DNA of 64,000 nt from a virus (lineage: Duplodnaviria; Caudoviricetes). Shown here piece by piece: positions 1 through 8,134 of this stretch. Location of the stretch: the IMG/VR virus record IMGVR_UViG_3300020413_000004, positions 1 to 64,000 of that record; one strand, 5' to 3'. The notes below the pieces were generated by a model. That model had not been told where the DNA came from, did not search any database, and was given only the letters and a program-made list of their open reading frames with translations. Each line of letters starts with the position of its first letter. Positions within the stretch are counted from its first letter, which is position 1. Position numbers and translations under genes: made by a program.

Positions 1-148
1 GTATTTATTGTTCTAGGGTTGAAAGTATTTGAACTATGCCTCTCGGCACCGTCCTCGAAAAAATTTTTTTACACAGTAGATTCCCTATAAATTATCCAAT
101 TCTGGTTCATTCTGCCACACCGGCCCCCCACGATTGGTGGGATATTTT

Positions 149-307
149 CGGTACTTTTTGGTAATTTTTTCTCTTGACAGCCCCTAAATAGTGTGTTATA
201 ATGAACAAAAAATCAAAATTTTTGAAGTACTGTTTCGGTACTTTTTGGTTTCTTTTGGATCCCCTATTACGGTGCTTTTTGGTTCGGTACTTTTTGGTGC
301 TTTTTGG
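149..307 (+). repeat. five copies of (C)GGTRCTTTTTGG(T)
   Basis: Copies at 149-162, 236-249, 270-283, 285-298 and 296-307, all in the same orientation, in non-coding DNA. Confidence 0.8.
174..202 (+). promoter_or_regulatory. consensus sigma70 promoter
   Basis: TTGACA(174-179)-N17-TATAAT(197-202). Confidence 0.75.
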
Positions 308-596
308 GCCCCTGCGGGAGCTCTTTCGGTTCTGGACTTATTGTGTGTTACGGTTAGGAGGGGTTCTGCGGAGGCCTTAGCGACAGCCAGGACTGCTGTG
401 GAGAAACCGGCACATGCCAAACGGTGCTCGGTTGCGGACACTACAGCGCCTCGCACACCGTTCTCCCACTGTTCGTCCTCCCCGTGTTTCACTCCGTGTC
501 GTCCGCCTCGTTAAGTCATTGTTTCTACTACATAAAAAAACTTGAAAAAAGATGCTAAGTCATTGTTTTTGTTGGATTCTTTTTTGCATTTTTTGG

Positions 597-625
597 TTGC
601 AATACAAATAAAAATGTGCTATAAC
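597..625 (+). promoter_or_regulatory. early sigma70-type promoter
   Basis: TTGCAA-N17-TATAAC, with extended -10 TG, upstream of ORF 664. Confidence 0.65.
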
Positions 626-663
626 TTTAATATAATAAAATTTTAACTAGCATGAGGGCAAAT

Positions 664-1266
664 ATGCAATACAATAAAACACTTGTAAAACTAGCAAAAA
701 CATTTTTAGCAAACGAAAACGTTGAAGTTTACTTTGACGAAGCACGTACTGAATTTAGTATTTGCGTGGACGTAAACAACAACAGAATATGGACTGACGG
801 TAACAGAGGTTTATGGAGTACGGTTGCAAAAGGTGTAAAGGTAAGACACGCGAACTTTTTAGTTAGCTATGATGATGGGGACAACACATGGAGTGGTGGA
901 CTTGCGGGTACTGTACACTATGACGGTAGTGGTGAAGATGGTACATGGTTTGATGGTGGAGACGTGGAGACTGCACTTATAAACAAAACAAAGGACAAAG
1001 AAAGCGACGGTATGATTTATACGGACACAGCTTTTTTAAATAACTTGTTTAAGTACATGGTGAAGCATTGTGATTTTGATATGGACTTACAAGAATACTT
1101 AGATTTTGATTATAGCGAACAAGGTATGCAAGACGACGAATATGTAAACTTAGACGTAGACTTAGACGGAACGTTTTGGTTATATGTTATTGATGAAATG
1201 AAAAAGGAGGGTATAGCACACAGAATGATTGGTGAAGATGATTTAATTGTTGAGGTTGTGAAATAA
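664..1266 (+). CDS. acidic early hypothetical protein
   Basis: ORF 652..1266; ATG at 664 follows GAGGGC; D/E-rich. Confidence 0.8.
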   Translation: MQYNKTLVKLAKTFLANENVEVYFDEARTEFSICVDVNNNRIWTDGNRGLWSTVAKGVKVRHANFLVSYDDGDNTWSGGLAGTVHYDGSGEDGTWFDGGDVETALINKTKDKESDGMIYTDTAFLNNLFKYMVKHCDFDMDLQEYLDFDYSEQGMQDDEYVNLDVDLDGTFWLYVIDEMKKEGIAHRMIGEDDLIVEVVK

Positions 1267-1279
1267 AATAAAAAAAAGG

Positions 1280-1310
1280 TTGCATACTAGCATAAAATGT
1301 GCTAGTATGC
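1280..1310 (+). promoter_or_regulatory. promoter TTGCAT-N17-TAGTAT lying inside an 11-bp inverted repeat (possible terminator/promoter)
   Basis: GCATACTAGCA(1282-1292)...TGCTAGTATGC(1300-1310), followed by TTTT. Confidence 0.6.
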
Positions 1311-1341
1311 TTTTATAATAAAAATTTACGCAGAGGGCAAT

Positions 1342-1479
1342 ATGCAAAAATTACTGAACATGATAACAATTTATTTTTTAAACAGGGCGTATGTGCAGAT
1401 GGAGGCTACAGGCAACTTGCAAAATGCTGATGACGTGGCTGAGCACTTGGAAGATTATTATACATATTTTGTAAAATAA
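1342..1479 (+). CDS. 45-aa early hypothetical protein (not in ORF track)
   Basis: GAGGGCAAT-ATG; MQKLLNMITIYFLNRAYVQMEATGNLQNADDVAEHLEDYYTYFVK*; has its own promoter. Confidence 0.65.
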   Translation: MQKLLNMITIYFLNRAYVQMEATGNLQNADDVAEHLEDYYTYFVK

Positions 1480-1492
1480 ATTTAAAAAAGAC

Positions 1493-1521
1493 TTGACATA
1501 GTGTTTTTATTATGCTATGTT
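1493..1521 (+). promoter_or_regulatory. early sigma70-type promoter
   Basis: TTGACA-N17-TATGTT. Confidence 0.6.
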
Positions 1522-1555
1522 AAGGTATAATAAAAATTAACAGAAGGGCAAATAC

Positions 1556-1753
1556 ATGGGAATGAGTAATTATATTTTAGACTTACAGGAACAGTTTGAT
1601 GAGAAGGTTGAACTTGCTGTTAAGGAAAGCGAACACGTGGCAGAAGCGATGGCGGTTGCTGTGAAGCATAGGCACTTGGTTGAAATGACTGATGAGGAGA
1701 TTGAGGACTATGTGGGAGAAGCTTGGAACGAGATATGGAGCAATTACTTATGA
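1556..1753 (+). CDS. small acidic early protein
   Basis: ORF with AAGGGC RBS. Confidence 0.7.
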   Translation: MGMSNYILDLQEQFDEKVELAVKESEHVAEAMAVAVKHRHLVEMTDEEIEDYVGEAWNEIWSNYL

Positions 1754-1914
1754 GACTAGAAGCGGCGAGGCTGTTTGTAATAATAACGGCAGATGAAGAG
1801 GTTAGTGTAACGGCAATGGATTTTGCGGATGCAATGACAACATGGGCAGGCAACTTTGAAGACGTGCTGATGGTGGAGGAGCACGACAACTGGCAGGGCG
1901 AAACATTACATTAA
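1750..1914 (+). CDS. small early protein
   Basis: ATGA overlap with the previous stop; start trimmed from 1723. Confidence 0.6.
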   Translation: MRLEAARLFVIITADEEVSVTAMDFADAMTTWAGNFEDVLMVEEHDNWQGETLH

Positions 1915-2001
1915 AAAAGATGAAAAAAAGATTTCCAATAAAATCAAGAGGTTACACGGAATCCCCAGCTAAGTCATTGAAATCATTGAGAATCTTTTTT
2001 C

Positions 2002-2042
2002 TTGACATTACGAATAAACGATCATATACTGTATATAACAGT
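2002..2042 (+). promoter_or_regulatory. early promoter with palindrome ACTGT-ATATA-ACAGT
   Basis: TTGACA-N17-TATACT; palindrome at 2028-2042. Confidence 0.75.
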
Positions 2043-2073
2043 TAAGCAATAACGCCAACAAATGGAGGGTCCA

Positions 2074-2388
2074 ATGGCAACATCAAAAACTTTTTCCGTA
2101 GCAGGAACAAGCAAATTAAACGGCATCACAAAGATCCGTTTCGCAAACGACTTCGTCAGCAGAGTTAAGATACTGGCGAAGAACAGGCACGATGACATCA
2201 ACCTCATCGAGCTAGGTGGAGAGTTCAGCAAGGCAGAAGTATGCCAGGTGCTGGTAGCCCACCCAGGTTTCCAATCAGAAGAGGCGCAGTCAGCCATCCA
2301 CGAGTATGTGGTTAGGAATGCTCCGGAGATCATGAAAGAGATCGAGGAGAAGATGGACGCCCAGTTGGAGGCCGTCACCCAGGCCTAG
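2074..2388 (+). CDS. early hypothetical protein
   Basis: ORF 2062..2388; ATG at 2074 after GGAGGGT. Confidence 0.8.
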   Translation: MATSKTFSVAGTSKLNGITKIRFANDFVSRVKILAKNRHDDINLIELGGEFSKAEVCQVLVAHPGFQSEEAQSAIHEYVVRNAPEIMKEIEEKMDAQLEAVTQA

Positions 2389-2401
2389 CCAGGGAACCCG
2401 C

Positions 2402-2450
2402 GGTCCCATTGGGACCATGTGGGGGCGGCGATATGGTCGCCCCCAAATTT
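2402..2450 (+). terminator. tandem GC hairpins, likely terminator or processing site
   Basis: GGTCCC-ATT-GGGACC, then GGGGGCGGC...GTCGCCCCC; weak U-tract. Confidence 0.45.
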
Positions 2451-2477
2451 AAAATTCAATTATTTCAGATAGGGCTT

Positions 2478-2738
2478 ATGGATAATGGAAAAGACAGTTT
2501 TTGTAGCAAGAATCATTCGAAGCAAAAGAGGGCTTCATTCACTTCACAATTCACGCAACCTATCACCGATCATCCCAAGAGAAGGGAAACGGTCACTGAG
2601 TATCTCGCAAGAGGCGGAACCATTACAGCTCAGCCTGCCGTTCGGACCATTACCTGGCGTGAAGCTCAAGACCTACTAGAGAAGTTGGCGTGGCATAATT
2701 ATGTTCCGCCAAAACCGGTTGACAATGAGGAAGAATGA
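2478..2738 (+). CDS. early hypothetical protein
   Basis: ORF 2409..2738; ATG at 2478 after AGGGC; contains YLARGGTIT. Confidence 0.6.
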   Translation: MDNGKDSFCSKNHSKQKRASFTSQFTQPITDHPKRRETVTEYLARGGTITAQPAVRTITWREAQDLLEKLAWHNYVPPKPVDNEEE

Positions 2739-2747
2739 GAATATACT
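2719..2747 (+). promoter_or_regulatory. early promoter
   Basis: TTGACA-N17-TATACT. Confidence 0.7.
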
Positions 2748-2770
2748 GTAAGAATAATAAGGAGGGCAAT

Positions 2771-2953
2771 ATGAGGACAATCGTAGCAAGTTTTTTTATA
2801 ATGTTTGGTCTGGTGCTTATGGCAGGCAGTGGAGGCGACTGTGACGGGAAGTGCATGGAATATGCGAACACCCTAGGCGAAACAATGTTATATGGATTCA
2901 TCGGGCTGATGAGTTTTATAATGGGAGCAATTTTAATAGGAGGGAGAGCTTAA
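2771..2953 (+). CDS. small two-TM membrane protein
   Basis: GGAGGGC RBS; two hydrophobic segments flanking CDGKC. Confidence 0.7.
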   Translation: MRTIVASFFIMFGLVLMAGSGGDCDGKCMEYANTLGETMLYGFIGLMSFIMGAILIGGRA

Positions 2954-3150
2954 TGAGAAAGTATATAATGATCGGTACCAAGGTGGTAACCAGACATGGC
3001 GAAGCAAAGGTCACAGGTATTGAGCTGACCAGCAACGGCGACAAGTACGGTATTGACATGGACAAGGTGTTTGTCGAGGACAAGGACAGATGCGTGTTCG
3101 ATATGGATAACGGCCATTGGTCATATGGCTATCAAGTGGAGGTGCGATAA
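2953..3150 (+). CDS. small early protein (beta-rich)
   Basis: TAATG overlap; start trimmed from 2851. Confidence 0.65.
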   Translation: MRKYIMIGTKVVTRHGEAKVTGIELTSNGDKYGIDMDKVFVEDKDRCVFDMDNGHWSYGYQVEVR

Positions 3151-3317
3151 TGTATATGAGGATGGAACCCAATGCTAGGGATAAGGCCCTAGAACTAGTA
3201 GAAGAAGGCATGGTCTCAGCTGAGGACATGTTGACAATGGCTCTCAAGTATATGTCTACAGATGACGTAGATGATATGCTAGACTGTAATGAATTATCTG
3301 AAAGATTTCTTGATTAA
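3150..3317 (+). CDS. small acidic early protein
   Basis: TAATG overlap; GGAGGT RBS. Confidence 0.7.
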   Translation: MYMRMEPNARDKALELVEEGMVSAEDMLTMALKYMSTDDVDDMLDCNELSERFLD

Positions 3318-3331
3318 TTTGCCAAAAAAGG

Positions 3332-3372
3332 TTGACTTCTATATCAACTGAGAATATACTGTATATAACAGT
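3332..3372 (+). promoter_or_regulatory. early promoter with palindrome ACTGT-ATATA-ACAGT
   Basis: TTGACT-N17-TATACT; palindrome at 3358-3372. Confidence 0.75.
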
Positions 3373-3401
3373 TAGGGCAATAACAACAGAAAGAGGGCAA
3401 T

Positions 3402-3764
3402 ATGTTTATAGTTTCAACTCAGGTTTTAGAAAACTACGGCGCACACTCAGAGGACGGAAAGTTCTCCAGTGGTAATCATTACTGGAAGTTCAAGGTTGGG
3501 TCAGAGTACCTAGTCGAGGACTTGGACAGGGAGCAGGATGCAATGGCATTCATAGCCGCCCTGTGCATGGAGAACGGCGTGGGCTTTAAGGAGTATCCAT
3601 GTCATATCCAGACTGTAACGGAGTGGGCGAAAGACTTGCCCGACGATGCAGGTGAGATGCAGAGCTGTAGGGACTATTACCTCAGCAGGGTGATCCGAGT
3701 GTCACCTCATGCTCCGAAGGACTTCTCCAAGCGAGGGGTTACCGAAGAGGAGGTGATGATATGA
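3402..3764 (+). CDS. early hypothetical protein (ENYGAH...YWKFK motif)
   Basis: GAGGGC RBS; ORF track. Confidence 0.8.
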   Translation: MFIVSTQVLENYGAHSEDGKFSSGNHYWKFKVGSEYLVEDLDREQDAMAFIAALCMENGVGFKEYPCHIQTVTEWAKDLPDDAGEMQSCRDYYLSRVIRVSPHAPKDFSKRGVTEEEVMI

Positions 3765-3943
3765 ACGTTCGCTTCGTAAACAATGGCTATGGTACCGATG
3801 ACGGTATCAAGGAGACCAAGGTGGTCAGAACTGATCTTTCAATTCACGGAGCACCGCAACTGATAATCGAAAACCCATGGTGGTCCGGTGACACACTGAC
3901 CTGTGATTGGATAGAAGGAGAATGGGTTTGCGATTTGGACTAA
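3761..3943 (+). CDS. small early protein
   Basis: GGAGGT RBS; overlaps the previous ORF. Confidence 0.65.
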   Translation: MNVRFVNNGYGTDDGIKETKVVRTDLSIHGAPQLIIENPWWSGDTLTCDWIEGEWVCDLD

Positions 3944-3960
3944 AATGGACACATAAGGGG

Positions 3961-4001
3961 TTGACCTTTATGCATAGTGAGACTATACTGTATATAACAG
4001 T
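3961..4001 (+). promoter_or_regulatory. early promoter with palindrome ACTGT-ATATA-ACAGT
   Basis: TTGACC-N17-TATACT; palindrome at 3987-4001. Confidence 0.75.
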
Positions 4002-4028
4002 TAACAATTAATCCAAGAGAGGGCATCT

Positions 4029-5033
4029 ATGGAAAACATTAAAATATTAGAAGGCACGTACAAGATCAGAGGCAAGGACCAGGACTTAGCAGGAATGGTG
4101 TTTCCACTGGTAGAAGGTTTCAAGATGGGAGCCGCAGGTGGTTACGTGACAGTAGACGGAAAGGCCATAGCAGGCTTTCCAGATCGTAACATCAAGATCA
4201 GAGTAAGCGATGCGAACTCGATCGAAGATGCTGGCAAAGCAAAGGTCACAGAGCGAGAGGAGAGCGACGAAGAAACAGTCGAAAGACTCCGTGAGCGATT
4301 CAACATGTTAGAGGACATGACCAAAGCATGTAAGAAAGGTGCAGTACGTGCAATGATCGTATCAGGACCTCCAGGTGTTGGTAAGAGCTTTGGTGTTGAG
4401 AAGGTGCTGGGTAAGCACGATATCATCGCTACACTGAGTGAGAAAGCGCCGCGATATGAAGTTGTCAAGGGTGCTATGTCAGCAATAGGCCTCTACTGTA
4501 AACTGTACAAGTTCGCAGACAAGGATAACGTTATAGTCTTTGATGACTGTGATAGTGTATTCGCAGATGAGCTTTGTCTGAACATACTGAAAGCCGCACT
4601 GGATTCCAAGAAGACCAGGCGTATACATTGGAACACGGACTCATTCAAGTTGAGAAACGAAGGTGTTCCAGACAGCTTTGAGTTCAAGGGTAGTGCAATA
4701 TTCATTACCAACATCAAGTTTGATAATGTCAAGAGCAAGAAGATGAGGGATCACCTAGAAGCTCTTGAGAGCAGATGTCACTACATTGATCTAACAATTG
4801 ATACTGAGCGAGAGAAGATGCTGAGAATCAAACAGATCACCAAGGACGGTATGCTCCATGAGTATCAGCTAGGCGATCAAGTCGAAGAAGACATCGTCGA
4901 CTATGTTGACATTAACAAGAAGAAGCTTAGGGAGCTGTCACTTAGGACAGTACTTAAGATCGCAGACTTAGCTAAGGCATTCCCAGATCGTTGGGAAGCA
5001 ATGGCCGAGAACACCGTGATGCGTCGAGCATAA
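4029..5033 (+). CDS. AAA+/P-loop ATPase
   Basis: Walker A GPPGVGKS; Walker B VIVFDD; sensor FITN; arginine finger ALESR. Confidence 0.85.
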   Translation: MENIKILEGTYKIRGKDQDLAGMVFPLVEGFKMGAAGGYVTVDGKAIAGFPDRNIKIRVSDANSIEDAGKAKVTEREESDEETVERLRERFNMLEDMTKACKKGAVRAMIVSGPPGVGKSFGVEKVLGKHDIIATLSEKAPRYEVVKGAMSAIGLYCKLYKFADKDNVIVFDDCDSVFADELCLNILKAALDSKKTRRIHWNTDSFKLRNEGVPDSFEFKGSAIFITNIKFDNVKSKKMRDHLEALESRCHYIDLTIDTEREKMLRIKQITKDGMLHEYQLGDQVEEDIVDYVDINKKKLRELSLRTVLKIADLAKAFPDRWEAMAENTVMRRA

Positions 5034-5144
5034 TCTTTGCCCTCACGCTCCGCATCCGGTAAGGAGTAGAAGCTTTCGCCCTCATTGCTCTACTCCGTAA
5101 GAGGAAGCCCAGGATCAAGCACAAAAGGTCCTGGGTTTCTTTTT
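5013..5144 (+). ncRNA. putative 3'UTR-derived sRNA with two GCCCUCA loops and an intrinsic terminator
   Basis: Hairpin 5013-5060 (loop contains TTTGCCCTCA); hairpin 5063-5096 (loop TTTCGCCCTCATT); terminator 5104-5144. Confidence 0.55.
5104..5144 (+). terminator. Rho-independent terminator
   Basis: GAAGCCCAGGATC...GGTCCTGGGTTTC plus T tract. Confidence 0.8.
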
Positions 5145-5155
5145 GCCAAAAGAGG

Positions 5156-5184
5156 TTGACCATCTAGACAATAGACCTTATAAT
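5156..5184 (+). promoter_or_regulatory. early promoter
   Basis: TTGACC-N17-TATAAT. Confidence 0.7.
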
Positions 5185-5215
5185 CGTAAGTATAATAACA
5201 AAGCAAGAGGGTAAT

Positions 5216-5539
5216 ATGAAAATAGAAGTTATACACGCCGCGTTCGAAGAAACAGCACAGCACATGGCCAACGTTACAGCAGACGATAGAATGGGAGTTA
5301 TGGAAGCTCTTGAGTATGCTTATCGTTGGACCAACAATGTTATGGGAAGCTGGAGCAGAACAGACATTGAGAACAATGGCGATGAGAATACAGACGTTGA
5401 AGTTGTTAAGCCCGTAGGCACTATGGGACACAGATCAACATCCGTAGGAGACTACATGAGAGTAGACGGCAGTCTATATCGTGTAGCAATGGCAGGCTTT
5501 GAGTCTGCTGAATCAGTACAAACTCGTAATTCAATATAG
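5216..5539 (+). CDS. early hypothetical protein (RSTSVGD motif, YodL-like)
   Basis: GAGGGT RBS; GHRSTSVGDY motif. Confidence 0.75.
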   Translation: MKIEVIHAAFEETAQHMANVTADDRMGVMEALEYAYRWTNNVMGSWSRTDIENNGDENTDVEVVKPVGTMGHRSTSVGDYMRVDGSLYRVAMAGFESAESVQTRNSI

Positions 5540-5549
5540 GAGGGCATCA

Positions 5550-5870
5550 ATGCTTACACGAGAACTTCACAACAGAGCAACCACAGCCGCTGAACAGGCT
5601 ACTAACGATTACATCAAGGCACACGGGGACTTCGATACCTGTGGCTTTGCTTGGGTAACTGCTTATGTCAACGGCGCTTCCAAGCTGGGCAAGAGCTTTA
5701 AGGCACAGGGCTTTGACAAAGCATACGGCGGTGGCTGGCAGTTATGGAACCCGGGCAAGAGCTTTACGCAGAGCATCAATGCCAAGGAGGCAGGCTGTAA
5801 TGCTTACGTGGCTACTGTTAGAGCAGAGCTACCCGACGTAAAGATCTACAGCAACAGTAGAATGGATTAG
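5550..5870 (+). CDS. early hypothetical protein (CGFAWV motif)
   Basis: GGAGGGC RBS; ATG at 5550. Confidence 0.75.
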   Translation: MLTRELHNRATTAAEQATNDYIKAHGDFDTCGFAWVTAYVNGASKLGKSFKAQGFDKAYGGGWQLWNPGKSFTQSINAKEAGCNAYVATVRAELPDVKIYSNSRMD

Positions 5871-5890
5871 ATTCTACAGCAGAAAAAAAG

Positions 5891-5914
5891 AAAGGTCCTT
5901 CGGGGCCTTTTTTT
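5891..5914 (+). terminator. Rho-independent terminator closing the early region
   Basis: AAAGGTCC-TTCG-GGGCCTTTTTTT. Confidence 0.85.
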
Positions 5915-6110
5915 ATGAAAAAATTTTCTCGAGAAGAAATAAAATAAAAAAATTTCTCGAGGGGTGGTCGGGCTTAATACGCAACAATTACATGAGCTTA
6001 CATTAGCCTTAAGCCGAAGTAAAATCACCACCTCACTTCTGTAAGTACTTCACCTTAATTTTTTGTAATCTAATTTTTTACGCACAGAACCCATTTCACA
6101 TAACTACAGT

Positions 6111-6257
6111 ATGGACTACACAACAAACTTAATTAAAAACGGATCAGGTCTAGGAGTGTTAGAACAGTATGCAACAGTTCCCACCATGTTGGGCATTGTG
6201 TTTGGCATAGTGATCATATTGATACTGCTGGGCGTGTTTGATCCTCCTCGCAGTTAG
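6111..6257 (+). CDS. 48-aa single-TM protein (not in ORF track)
   Basis: MDYTTNLIKNGSGLGVLEQYATVPTMLGIVFGIVIILILLGVFDPPRS*; preceded by TAACTA-cagt. Confidence 0.55.
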   Translation: MDYTTNLIKNGSGLGVLEQYATVPTMLGIVFGIVIILILLGVFDPPRS

Positions 6258-6661
6258 AATCCTATATCATAATCCCACACTGAGTCTTTACCATGCACAC
6301 ATACTCTTATAAAGTTTGAAATGGTAGGAAAGTGTACACTCACAGTATTAAACAGCTCTGTATCCATGTGTGTATACGCACTCTGTCCTATGCTCATGTA
6401 GTAACTTCTATCTATACCGTAGTTAGGAAACACACCAGTTACAAATAGACATGTATCGCCCAGTTCCTTAGCAGTACGGCTATTGCGTATTGTCATTAAA
6501 CTTTCAGCAAATGAGCGTGTAGGTAGGAAACTGTTCTTGTCTACATGATCAGCCAATAGTGCTACCACATAGTGTTCTACCAGCATGGGCAGTTCAACAC
6601 CAGTTTCTGTTCTTGTGTTGCTTACCAGTTCAGTAAACGCAGTTACGTAAGCATCCTTCAT
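6254..6661 (-). CDS. hypothetical protein (KELGDTCLFVTGVFP...YY...GQSAY)
   Basis: ORF 6254..6799; likely ATG at 6661, 5 nt after TAAGTA. Confidence 0.7.
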   Translation of the reverse strand: MKDAYVTAFTELVSNTRTETGVELPMLVEHYVVALLADHVDKNSFLPTRSFAESLMTIRNSRTAKELGDTCLFVTGVFPNYGIDRSYYMSIGQSAYTHMDTELFNTVSVHFPTISNFIRVCVHGKDSVWDYDIGF

Positions 6662-6835
6662 ACAAGTACTTAGCCCCTCTACACAGTCAGGACCGTGTGC
6701 AACTGCGGTCAGTGTGCTATAATTACAGTATGACCCAAAGAGATCAACAATACCTATTGCGATGTTTTGAACGGCTACTTGAAGGTTCAACACTAGCACA
6801 CTTTGAAATTCTACGTGTTAGAGCCATACTGAACA

Positions 6836-7474
6836 ATGACTAACCCAGAACTGCAACACATATTTGCAACACCACTGTTTTCAACTACCATATCAGTGCC
6901 AGATTGGGACGCGAGTCTATATGAGTGGAAAGAGAACAAGCACAACAGGATCAGCACACAACAGTATGTGTTGGACATGCCAGAACTAGCCAGTCTGCGT
7001 AGAACCATAGATGCCAGTGTGCGAGTGTTTTGGAGAGACTTCATGTGTGCAACATGTGAAGCTGAACTGGCTATACAGCAGTCATGGGTGAATATAACAG
7101 ACACAGGTGCACATCATCATAGACATTGGCACACAAACTCAATGTACTCAGGTGTGCTGTTTTGGTGTGATCACTCAGCACCAATTACATTTATCAATCC
7201 AAGATATCCACAGTTGGACTTCACAGTGGGCACAACACATGAATCAAACTCAGGTGTATGGCAGGTAGAACCCAAGCTGGGCAAACTGTTGATATTTCCA
7301 TCATGGCTGGAACATCAGGTTGAAACAAACCATTCAGGAGGCGAACGCATCAGCCTTTCATTCAATACTTGGCCACAGGGACAGCTTACACCAGATCCAA
7401 CTAGAAGCCTTGATGTGTACACACGTACAGAACCACAGAAATTAACTGGCTGGCGAGATAGCAAAACAAAATAA
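6836..7474 (+). CDS. putative 2OG-Fe(II) oxygenase (TIGR02466-like)
   Basis: SWVN, HxHxNSMYSGV, LLIFPSWLEH and RISLSFN motifs. Confidence 0.85.
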   Translation: MTNPELQHIFATPLFSTTISVPDWDASLYEWKENKHNRISTQQYVLDMPELASLRRTIDASVRVFWRDFMCATCEAELAIQQSWVNITDTGAHHHRHWHTNSMYSGVLFWCDHSAPITFINPRYPQLDFTVGTTHESNSGVWQVEPKLGKLLIFPSWLEHQVETNHSGGERISLSFNTWPQGQLTPDPTRSLDVYTRTEPQKLTGWRDSKTK

Positions 7475-7735
7475 GAGCCATTAAAACGGAATCCCCTATT
7501 GTAGACTAGTTACAGGGCTATGCACGTAGTCTGTCGTTAGGGTTGACATCTTTCGCACAGTAAACATCCTCTCTAGTATAATGTTATACAATTTTTGCTA
7601 ACCGCTGTTTTGCTACCGCAAACGCTTCGCGTTGTCTCGTAAAAAAAACCGCTTTACCGCACCGCGGCATAAATAACTGGCACTGATTGGTCCGCCCTGG
7701 ATCCATTAATCAACGAAACTAAAGGAAATATTTTT

Positions 7736-8134
7736 ATGAAGATCAAAACCCTACTAATTGCGGGAGTGGTTCTTTTGACTGCAAACATTGCCAATGCAAT
7801 GGATTTGTCAGAACGACTAGCCCTTAACACAGAAGTAAAGATGGCACACAAGATTGATGCCGAAGCTACCAAAGTAACTATTAATCCAGAATTTGTTTGG
7901 ACACCTGGCATCGATATGAAATTAACTGCTGGTACAACCATCACTGGATGGGATTCTACACTTGACGATCGCTTTATACTGTTTGATGCAGTTCAAGATG
8001 ATTCAAGACCTGATTTAGAACTAGGCGGATACTATACCTTGTATAGTGGCGTAGAGCTATATGGTGAAACCAAATGGGATATGAATGCCGGAGAAAGAAA
8101 AGAAATTGAAGTTGGACTAACATACAACTTCTAA
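7736..8134 (+). CDS. small outer-membrane beta-barrel/porin-like protein
   Basis: Signal peptide ending ANA; alternating beta pattern; C-terminal GLTYNF beta-signal. Confidence 0.65.
   Translation: MKIKTLLIAGVVLLTANIANAMDLSERLALNTEVKMAHKIDAEATKVTINPEFVWTPGIDMKLTAGTTITGWDSTLDDRFILFDAVQDDSRPDLELGGYYTLYSGVELYGETKWDMNAGERKEIEVGLTYNF

Follow-up and report, generated by a model that had tools for sequence, protein, structure and literature searches.

The analysed window was a stretch of 64,000 nucleotides (positions 1 to 64,000 of the 117,072-base record IMGVR_UViG_3300020413_000004) from an uncultured marine jumbo myovirus. An early gene of this phage encodes a homologue of the T4-type AAA ATPase NrdC.10 (phrog_1250). 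The end of the gene and its 3' untranslated region form two predicted hairpins and an intrinsic terminator, and a cluster of small early genes lies around it (Table 1). The nearest cultured relative was Pseudomonas phage PA5oct (TerL 53.6% identical, ATPase 48%). In PA5oct, the next gene starts 44 nt after the ATPase gene, and there is no hairpin array. A DNA search of the phage collection with 4600–5300 gave no match. ATPase relatives were also found in four MAGs labelled with four different phyla, one of them on a 335-kb contig. These are most likely mis-binned phage contigs and gave no host assignment.

Table 1. Features of the hairpin array and of the surrounding early gene cluster (positions in the window)
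Position	Strand	Feature	Details
654–659	+	GAGGGC ribosome site	gene starting at 664; 10 nt complementary to loop 1
1333–1338	+	GAGGGC ribosome site	gene starting at 1342
1544–1549	+	AAGGGC variant ribosome site	gene starting at 1556
2065–2070	+	GAGGGT variant ribosome site	gene starting at 2074
2470–2475	+	TAGGGC variant ribosome site	gene starting at 2478
2762–2767	+	GAGGGC ribosome site	gene starting at 2771
3393–3398	+	GAGGGC ribosome site	gene starting at 3402
3961–3989	+	sigma-70-type early promoter (TTGACC-17-TATACT)	promoter of the ATPase transcript that carries the array; belongs to a repeated promoter cassette (families D3 and D4)
4019–4024	+	GAGGGC ribosome site of the ATPase gene	possible target in cis; duplex with loop 1 -14.3 kcal/mol, with the canonical 16S tail -8.1
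4029–5033	+	AAA ATPase gene	334 aa; last codons form the 5' arm of hairpin 1
5013–5060	+	predicted hairpin 1	loop 5030–5046 with the stop codon TAA (5031–5033) and UUUGCCCUCA (GCCCUCA at 5039–5045)
5063–5096	+	predicted hairpin 2	GCCCUCA in the loop (5078–5084); class with a 3' arm like GCUCUGC or GCUCUAC
5097–5150	+	intrinsic terminator	G+C-rich stem 5107–5116 (GCCCAGGAUC) with 5127–5136 (GGUCCUGGGU), then UUUCUUUUU; no GCCCUC in its loop here, unlike many relatives
5207–5212	+	GAGGGT variant ribosome site	gene starting at 5216, behind its own promoter at 5156–5184
5540–5545	+	GAGGGC ribosome site	gene starting at 5550

RNAfold of 5005–5150 gave both hairpins and a terminator helix at 5097–5146 with a U-run. 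The energy was -63.7 kcal/mol, while 200 dinucleotide shuffles averaged -36.6 (z = -7.5), and 0 of 200 folded as well. Both GCCCUCA motifs lay fully inside the loops. A simple terminator scan did not list the terminator because its loop of 10 nt exceeds the limit of 8 of the scan. A consensus scan found no promoter-like site on the plus strand between 3989 and 5143, and no conserved internal promoter was found before the array. The element thus shares the terminator of the ATPase mRNA and has no promoter of its own as far as a consensus match can show.

TTTGCCCTCA (5036–5045) is the exact reverse complement of TGAGGGCAAA (653–662), which covers the ribosome site of the gene starting at 664. 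All ten starts listed in Table 1 carried the motif or a variant 8–12 nt upstream. The number of hexamers alone was not unusual, with 10 GAGGGC in 64 kb against 8.9 expected. The placement is what stands out: in the whole record, all seven plus-strand GAGGGC lay at 654–5545, and six of the seven were ribosome sites. Only three plus-strand GCCCTC were found, and two of them were the two loops. By crude gene calls (ORFs of at least 90 aa, first ATG), 0 of 106 genes outside the cluster had GAGGGC upstream; these genes showed AGGA, AGGAG or GGAG types. Internal genes of the same operons (starts 3150 and 3761) used canonical GGAGGUG sites. The observation made in a sequence-only reading (two stem-loops displaying GCCCTCA and followed by a terminator, the 10-nt complementarity, and the motif at ten early starts) was therefore confirmed in each of its sequence statements.

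The Rfam scan of the window gave no match at gathering score. In 4700–5500 at E-values up to 10, no match to any regulatory RNA family of the cuckoo kind appeared. The only sub-threshold hit on the hairpins was the xanthine (NMT1) riboswitch, RF03054, with 22.2 bits against a gathering score of 36. It was rejected because the match replaces 24 positions of the aptamer core with 5 nt. A tRNA scan of the window found none, and in ten relatives only tRNAs matched Rfam. Literature searches on GCCCUC in phages, on GAGGGC as a Shine-Dalgarno sequence, on anti-Shine-Dalgarno small RNAs of phage early genes and on phage-encoded small RNAs acting at ribosome sites of early genes found no description of the element, the last judged by titles and the beginning of abstracts.

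The array is one member of an undescribed, conserved RNA family. We examined 55 non-redundant regions (the window and 54 IMG/VR loci, ATPase identity 66–91%), in which the ATPase stop codon was followed by 0–4 predicted hairpins carrying GCCCUC. The regions held 146 GCCCUC with a mean unpaired probability of 0.88, and 98.6% exceeded 0.5; the other positions averaged 0.376. Of 198 predicted hairpins, 124 carried the motif in the loop, with 85 distinct closing stems. The number of motif hairpins was zero in 3 regions, one in 6, two in 24, three in 18 and four in 4. In the commonest hairpin class, the loop is only UGCCCU, and the last C of the motif is predicted to be paired.

The stems varied and covaried. 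In hairpin 1, the third position of the Thr codon in the 5' arm took all four bases with matching partners: TA 24, AT 12, CG 5, GC 5, GT 3 and unpaired 3, i.e. 49 of 52 sequences were paired at this synonymous position. The partners were read from the fold of each sequence, as a MAFFT alignment misaligned the 3' arm and was not used for pair counts. In addition, we took 38 distinct hairpins chosen only by the constant core TGTGCCCTCG. All 190 flanking cells paired, and the three variable pairs showed four to five pair types each. None of 500 shuffles reached this, and slid controls paired in at most 54% of cells. A separate extraction gave 34 distinct hairpins, of which most, but not all, belonged to the class of hairpin 2, with variable outer stems.

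One could argue that the hairpins are only terminator and mRNA-stabilizing structures with a loop sequence shared by common descent or by chance. The element does end in a terminator, stable 3' hairpins do protect mRNAs, and the recurrence of hairpin classes looks as if the arrays grew by duplication. However, the loops were conserved while the stems changed, which is the reverse of neutral decay. Nearly all plus-strand GCCCTC in each locus of roughly 7 kb lay in this spot, the main exception being the ATPase Walker A codons. Moreover, the complementarity to a frequently used ribosome site would go unexplained. We consider this reading very unlikely.

The phages with the array had GAGGGC at ribosome-site distance 268 times in 329 kb, compared with 22 GAGGGT, 18 GAGGGA and 1 GAGGGG. 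The ten relatives without the array had 0 in 62 kb. The sequence-only reading had named, as observations that would speak against it, a paired GCCCUC in the predicted structure and a lack of its conservation in relatives keeping the GAGGGC site. Neither was found: the motif was unpaired and was conserved in the loops of relatives that keep the site, and both features were absent from relatives that lack either. However, presence and absence trace to essentially one evolutionary split, which makes the co-occurrence weak as independent evidence, and no clade was found in which loop and site changed together. The number of loops correlated with the density of GAGGGC sites (rho 0.60 over 64 loci and 0.36 within the array clade, neither corrected for phylogeny).

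At a seventh position, base use was mirror-image. The base after GAGGGC was A (.62), T (.18), G (.14) or C (.06), and the base before GCCCUC was T (.58), A (.30), C (.12) or G (.00). Some conservation is not explained by pairing with the ribosome site. The base after GCCCUC was a purine in 93% of loops and faces a purine in 78% of sites, and G never preceded the motif. A U-G plus a G-C pair closed the UGCCCU loop in 38 of 38 hairpins of one class, although this constancy partly reflects how the hairpins were selected. These constraints, and the repetition of the motif two to four times per RNA, would fit binding sites for a phage or host protein, i.e. a multi-site platform or sponge in the manner of CsrB/RsmZ, with the complementarity being secondary. 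On the other hand, no candidate protein was found, and the gene downstream of the array differed between relatives. CsrB/RsmZ-type sponges carry repeated GGA in hairpin loops and copy the mRNA site of the protein, while the loops here carry the complement. A sponge for a protein that binds ribosome sites should copy the site, and the private GC(A) extension and the mirror-image base use need a complementary partner. The protein-binding reading is therefore regarded as unlikely, though it is the strongest of the rivals.

In five of five genomes of 256–358 kb, one of them rated 100% complete, the array occurred once. In these genomes, 6–17 GAGGGC-N2-6-ATG sites lay on the strand of the array, nearly all within about 10–14 kb around it, against 2–3 on the other strand. 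GAGGGC was not depleted elsewhere, with 10 copies against a median of 9.5 for hexamers of the same composition in one genome (G000) and 41 against 38.5 in another (G001). Hence, there was no sign that off-targets are avoided. In eight of nine relatives checked, a hairpin with a GCCCUC apical loop directly followed a tRNA cluster.

The accessibility-corrected interaction energy had a median of -10.6 kcal/mol for the ten sites, against -2.4 for 106 other crude starts, of which only one reached -9.9 (Mann–Whitney p = 3e-7). This comparison is partly circular because the ten sites were picked by the motif, and the gene calls outside the cluster are crude. The complementarity to the ten sites was 6–10 nt. 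Duplex energies with the canonical 16S tail were -3.5 to -8.1 for seven of the ten sites, against -9.2 to -16.8 with loop 1. The internal gene at 3761 showed the reverse (-16.3 against -9.1).

An action only in cis was also considered. The 3' loops would pair with the ribosome site of the same ATPase mRNA, giving autoregulation or closing the mRNA into a loop, and the other genes would merely share a promoter-leader cassette. In favour of this, the array was in the ATPase 3' end in every array-bearing locus and in all 25 phage contigs that hold the 16-mer GGATGTGCCCTCGTCC outside chance matches. Of 35 contigs with the exact 16-mer, the other 10 were unrelated G+C-rich contigs in which it lies in apparent coding sequence, and these were treated as chance. 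Furthermore, hairpin 1 overlaps the coding end, which means that translation must melt it, the ATPase site was GAGGGC in 29 of 50 loci, and promoter cassettes were repeated. However, another 6–17 genes per genome carry the site, and their leaders differ in length and sequence apart from the site itself. The tRNA-linked hairpin exists apart from the ATPase gene, and, by a crude start call, 21 of 50 ATPase genes lacked an exact GAGGGC. An action restricted to cis is thus improbable on present evidence.

Metatranscriptome contigs from RNA libraries covered 4796–5110, 4825–5110, 4815–5060 and 4802–5347 in four runs. They show only that the stretch is present in RNA libraries, as contigs cannot show ends, strand or level, and strain variants break contigs near 4796–4840, so that the shared start proves nothing. 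The higher contig depth at the 3' end of the gene in two runs of one study cannot rank parts of a gene, and gaps in cover are not evidence.

Our most likely explanation, which we hold to be only somewhat more probable than not, is a base-pairing anti-RBS RNA built like the cuckoo, 6C and RsaE RNAs with C-rich loops. The loops, most often UGCCCUC followed by a purine, are the complement of a private extension of the Shine-Dalgarno sequence, GAGGGC(A). This extension is used only by a local cluster of about 6–17 small early genes around the array, mostly the first gene behind each promoter. In this view, the GAGG part can still recruit 30S subunits weakly, while the added GC(A) does not match the 16S tail but gives 6–7 G+C-rich pairs with the loops, which is a short pairing. 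The array would pair with the ribosome sites, outcompete the ribosome and lower translation of the cluster, including its own ATPase gene, as early transcripts accumulate. It could do this as a stable 3' fragment or as part of the full mRNA. Structure, loop display, conservation with covarying stems, co-occurrence and co-location with the GAGGGC sites and the predicted energies are shown by the analysis, whereas physical pairing, seed-dependent repression, action in trans, processing and timing are our inferences.

The interpretation given in the sequence-only reading was hence partly supported. The link between loop motif and early ribosome site is much stronger than could be known from the sequence alone. 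That the RNA is cut out as a 3'UTR-derived species of 100–130 nt, acts in trans, represses rather than protects or activates, and works as a temporal switch remains inference. The target set is also narrower than the early regulon that had been proposed, being one contiguous cluster of mostly promoter-proximal small genes. The parallel drawn to alphaproteobacterial RNAs is an analogy only.

Pairing could also have a positive or protective effect, shielding early mRNAs from a nuclease or holding them in reserve. The same complementarity would support this, and the array is made from an early promoter together with its targets and is thus present from the start of infection. However, pairing covers the Shine-Dalgarno element 2–6 nt from the start codon, and in the known C-rich-loop RNAs, this blocks initiation (PMC4615179). 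The leaders are A+U-rich and gave no sign of an inhibitory fold that pairing would open. This alternative is regarded as improbable.

Among known systems, the cuckoo RNAs of Alphaproteobacteria (the RSs0680 and SmelC397 type) likewise have two to four adjacent hairpins, with stems so variable through compensatory changes that ordinary covariance models perform poorly (PMC4615179). Their loop motif is CCUCCUCCC and not GCCCUC, they are bacterial rather than phage-encoded, and they target ordinary ribosome sites rather than a private extended one. The array is therefore not a member of this family but a functional look-alike. In C-rich-loop RNAs of Gram-positive bacteria (6C of Mycobacterium, RsaE, RNAIII and LhrC), several loops carry a short C-rich seed and bind several mRNAs at G-rich ribosome sites (PMC6486639, PMC4132741; for RNAIII and the UCCC motif, PMC4615179). 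These are host-encoded, free-standing genes with different seeds, and their targets are ordinary Shine-Dalgarno sequences, not a site peculiar to one gene cluster.

The RNA repressors of temperate phages (P1/P7 c4 and P4 CI RNA) are cut from the early transcript that they control. They pair through their loops with short complementary sites, one of which covers a ribosome site, and shut off early or antirepressor genes. They are immunity factors with one or two targets and longer pairing, while here there are 6–17 putative targets in a T4-type, presumably lytic, jumbo phage. In T4, early mRNAs are shut off by the proteins RegB, which cuts GGAG in early Shine-Dalgarno sequences, and RegA. The logical role would be the same, with early messages marked for inactivation by a feature of their ribosome site, but here the agent would be an RNA. 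A profile search for RegA (PF01818) gave no hit in three genomes (G000, G001 and G003), but it gave none in the control genomes either. Processed 3'UTR-derived small RNAs of enterobacteria share the terminator of a protein-coding mRNA and have no promoter of their own, as holds for this element by the consensus scan. Here, however, a processed species is only inferred, and the 5' arm of hairpin 1 is still coding sequence.

A more far-reaching reading is possible, though we consider it less likely than not. A clade of marine jumbo phages would run a private translation code for one early gene cluster, with an extension of the ribosome sites, GAGGGCA, that the ribosome ignores and that a phage RNA with several UGCCCUC loops reads. 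The RNA would be made once per genome from the ATPase 3' end, and, in many relatives, a single-hairpin version would also be released next to tRNAs by tRNA-processing enzymes. This would give an RNA-only timer or feedback that shuts off early translation, doing the job of RegB and RegA in T4.

Regulatory RNAs of lytic phages are barely known, and none is known to control a whole set of the phage's own early genes through a shared ribosome-site tag. The case offers a complete, compact and testable circuit with a seed of 6–7 nt, 6–17 tagged genes and one array per genome, conserved in more than 50 uncultured marine jumbo phages. It would add an RNA family that is missing from Rfam and give a portable orthogonal translation switch. 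It would also show that a Shine-Dalgarno sequence can carry a second address, read by an RNA instead of the ribosome.

An AAA ATPase of 334 aa with weak Pfam AAA matches (phrog_1250) is encoded at 4029-5033. Its homologues in cultured phages are the T4-type NrdC.10-like proteins and gp126 of Pseudomonas jumbo phage PA5oct, at 48% identity. RNAfold of 5005-5150 gave two hairpins and a terminator helix, with an energy of -63.7 kcal/mol compared to a shuffle mean of -36.6 (z = -7.5; 0 of 200 shuffles folded as well). GCCCUCA lies unpaired in both hairpin loops. The 5' arm of hairpin 1 is the end of the coding sequence, and the stop codon sits in its loop. All sequence statements of the sequence-only reading were verified, meaning that its observation held. 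Its interpretation, a small RNA that silences the early genes as a temporal switch, was partly supported.

The window is the first 64 kb of a 117,072-base IMG/VR virus record rated 33% complete. It encodes T4-type replication, recombination, packaging and tail proteins, and the best cultured match of its large terminase is PA5oct (53.6%). The first 6-8 kb are richer in G+C (42-46% in 1-8000) and are read on the plus strand, while the rest (33-39% in 10000-64000) is read mostly on the minus strand. The early stretch holds small genes without family matches behind sigma-70-type promoters. Repeated motifs were found around these promoters. A perfect palindrome overlapping the -10 hexamer could be an operator for a repressor of early transcription. 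The repeats at the very start of the record resemble iterons and could be an origin, a genome end or a protein-binding array.

Coordinates of the features in the window and in relatives (L and a number: locus of a relative encoding the ATPase)
Sequence	Position	Feature
Window	4029-5033	AAA ATPase gene
Window	5013-5060	Hairpin 1 (predicted)
Window	5039-5045	GCCCUCA, loop of hairpin 1
Window	5063-5096	Hairpin 2 (predicted)
Window	5078-5084	GCCCUCA, loop of hairpin 2
Window	5097-5146	Terminator helix (predicted) ending in a U-run
Window	132-312	Six copies of a motif like CGGTACTTTTTGGT, spaced 11-76 nt apart, upstream of the promoter at 174-202
Window	174-202	Perfect TTGACA-17-TATAAT promoter
Window	2026-2044, 3356-3374, 3985-4003	Perfect palindrome ACTGTATATAACAGT (repeat family D3), overlapping the -10 hexamer (TATACT) and the start of three early transcripts; similar TATACTGTA(A/T)(G/A)TATAAC sequences follow the early promoters of many relatives
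Window	2705-2723, 3318-3336, 5142-5160	Conserved stretch like TTTGCCAAAA(A/G)AGGTTGAC (repeat family D5), just upstream of and into the -35 hexamer of early promoters; relatives often show AAATTAGGGGTTGAC at the same place
Window	511-521, 553-564, 1966-1990	Motif like GCTAAGTCATTG(AAATCATTGAG), recurring upstream of early promoters (seen by eye)
L031 (358-kb relative)	After its array	Motif like GCTAAGTCATTG(AAATCATTGAG) (seen by eye)
Window	4796-5110, 4825-5110, 4815-5060, 4802-5347	Contigs of four RNA libraries over the array
L053	2192-3100	Hairpin array starting about 450 nt after the ATPase stop
L010	about 1755-1810	Hairpin with GCCCUC in its apical loop, directly behind a tRNA cluster
L012	about 1930-1985	As for L010
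L021	about 2335-2390	As for L010
L033	about 1997-2050	As for L010
L038	about 315-370	As for L010
L041	about 940-990	As for L010
L044	about 800-850	As for L010
L055	about 1335-1390	As for L010
L013	about 2260-2310	Terminator hairpin of another early gene with GCCCUC in the loop, followed by a U-run
L014	about 765-815	As for L013
L023	about 1805-1855	As for L013
L028	about 520-570	As for L013

In the whole record, all 7 plus-strand GAGGGC lie between 654 and 5545. Six of them sit 9-10 nt before an ATG with an open frame, and four further starts have one-letter variants. By crude gene calls, 0 of 106 genes outside this cluster have GAGGGC upstream. The sites belong mostly to the first gene behind each promoter, while the internal genes at 3150 and 3761 have canonical GGAGGUG sites. 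The leaders differ in length and sequence apart from the site, so the site itself is what is conserved.

A protein-guided scan of IMG/VR found 209 stretches encoding a relative of the ATPase, of which the best 80 were kept. Duplicates were dropped, nine from the clade at 66-91% identity and six from the more distant, A+T-rich group. In the first clade, nearly every plus-strand GCCCTC of each roughly 7-kb locus lies in the 100-300 nt after the ATPase stop, the main exception being the Walker A codons of the ATPase itself. In L053, the array lies 450-870 nt further on, as if something had been inserted between gene and array. We folded 55 regions (the window plus 54 loci; L053 was left out of this count). 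They hold 146 GCCCUC with a mean unpaired probability of 0.88, and 98.6% exceed 0.5, while the other positions average 0.376. Of 198 predicted hairpins, 124 have the motif in the loop, closed by 85 distinct stems. The number of motif hairpins per region was 0 in 3 regions, 1 in 6, 2 in 24, 3 in 18 and 4 in 4. In many relatives, the terminator loop carries the motif too, but in the window it does not. Moreover, terminator hairpins of other early genes carry it in four relatives, meaning that single motif hairpins occur outside the ATPase 3' end.

Hairpin 1 can be anchored on the conserved codons Asn-Thr-Val-Met. At the third base of the Thr codon, all four bases occur with matching partners: TA 24, AT 12, CG 5, GC 5, GT 3 and unpaired 3, of 52 distinct sequences, each folded on its own. 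For a second class, 38 distinct hairpins were selected only by the constant core TGTGCCCTCG. The three flanking pairs form standard pairs in all cells (100% of 190 cells for the 5 pairs), show 4-5 pair types each, and 50 cells changed on both sides. No shuffle of 500 reached this, and slid controls paired in at most 54% of cells. Hairpin 2 of the window belongs to a third class, with a 3' arm like GCUCUGC and varying outer stems. These are conserved RNA structures in which the loop, not the stem, is held constant. This conservation of loops over stems contradicts plain stabilising or terminator hairpins, which we consider very unlikely and the least likely explanation.

In the array clade (55 loci, 329 kb), GAGGGC stands at ribosome-site distance from an ATG 268 times, against 22 for GAGGGT, 18 for GAGGGA and 1 for GAGGGG. 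In 10 array-less relatives (62 kb), it does so 0 times. The two letters after GAGG do not match the canonical 16S tail (the general motif, not that of an identified host). Duplex energies with that tail are only -3.5 to -8.1 kcal/mol for 7 of the 10 window sites, while those with loop 1 are -9.2 to -16.8. The canonical internal site at 3761 behaves the other way (-16.3 with the tail, -9.1 with loop 1). With opening energies included, the 10 flagged starts have a median of -10.6 kcal/mol compared to -2.4 for 106 other crude starts (1 of 106 at or below -9.9; p = 3e-7), although this comparison is partly circular. The same pairing could also have a protective or positive effect, but this appears quite unlikely.

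The base after GAGGGC (A.62, T.18, G.14, C.06) mirrors the base before GCCCUC (T.58, A.30, C.12, G 0), which extends the match to seven positions. At the other end purine faces purine, so the helix stops there. Some constraints are not explained by pairing: a purine after the motif in 93% of loops, never G before it, and a constant U-G pair in one class. They favour a protein-binding platform, an alternative we regard as unlikely but the strongest of the rivals.

In five genomes of 256-358 kb, the array occurs once. The 6-17 GAGGGC-N2-6-ATG sites on its strand lie almost all within 10-14 kb around it, with 2-3 on the other strand and 0-2 in reversed-pattern controls. Loop number and site density correlate (rho 0.60 over 64 loci and 0.36 within the clade, neither corrected for phylogeny). 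No clade was found in which loop and site changed together, and GAGGGC was not depleted elsewhere. Four contigs of this phage group (L136, a 335-kb contig, and L137, L138 and L139) are filed in GTDB MAGs labelled Neomarinimicrobiota, Flavobacteriaceae, Ignavibacteriales and Actinomycetota, and are most likely mis-binned phage DNA. Three of the four carry the array, with three GCCCTC after the ATPase stop.

In 8 of 9 relatives checked (not in L051), a cluster of 1-3 tRNA genes 1-3 kb upstream of the ATPase is followed at once by a 45-55 nt hairpin whose apical loop carries GCCCUC. The window has no tRNA and no such element. The hairpin may be a second small RNA with the same seed, linked to tRNA processing; its release by tRNA-processing enzymes is an inference. 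This second context argues that the loop works as a free RNA and not only inside the ATPase mRNA. A cis-only autoregulation of the ATPase mRNA is considered quite unlikely, about as doubtful as a protective effect.

Four RNA libraries from at least three studies hold contigs over the array. As contigs give no strand, ends or level, DNA may be present in such libraries, and strain variants break contigs near 4796-4840, this is only compatible with transcription.

The architecture is that of the alphaproteobacterial cuckoo RNAs: 2-4 hairpins, the same C-rich loop motif in each, and stems that vary by compensatory change (PMC4615179). It also resembles the C-rich-loop RNAs 6C and LhrC. The element is not a member of these families, as the motif differs and no Rfam model matches at gathering score. 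Among phages, the nearest parallels are P1 c4 and P4 CI RNA, and in logic it parallels T4 RegB and RegA. Literature searches found nothing describing this element.

The best reading, which we consider somewhat more likely than not, is a base-pairing anti-RBS RNA. The structures, their conservation and their link to the ribosome sites come from structure prediction and sequence comparisons, while pairing, repression, trans action and timing are inferred. In this view, the GAGG core lets 30S bind weakly, and the GC(A) extension makes the site a better partner for the loops than for the ribosome. As the early ATPase transcript accumulates, translation of the tagged cluster would fall.
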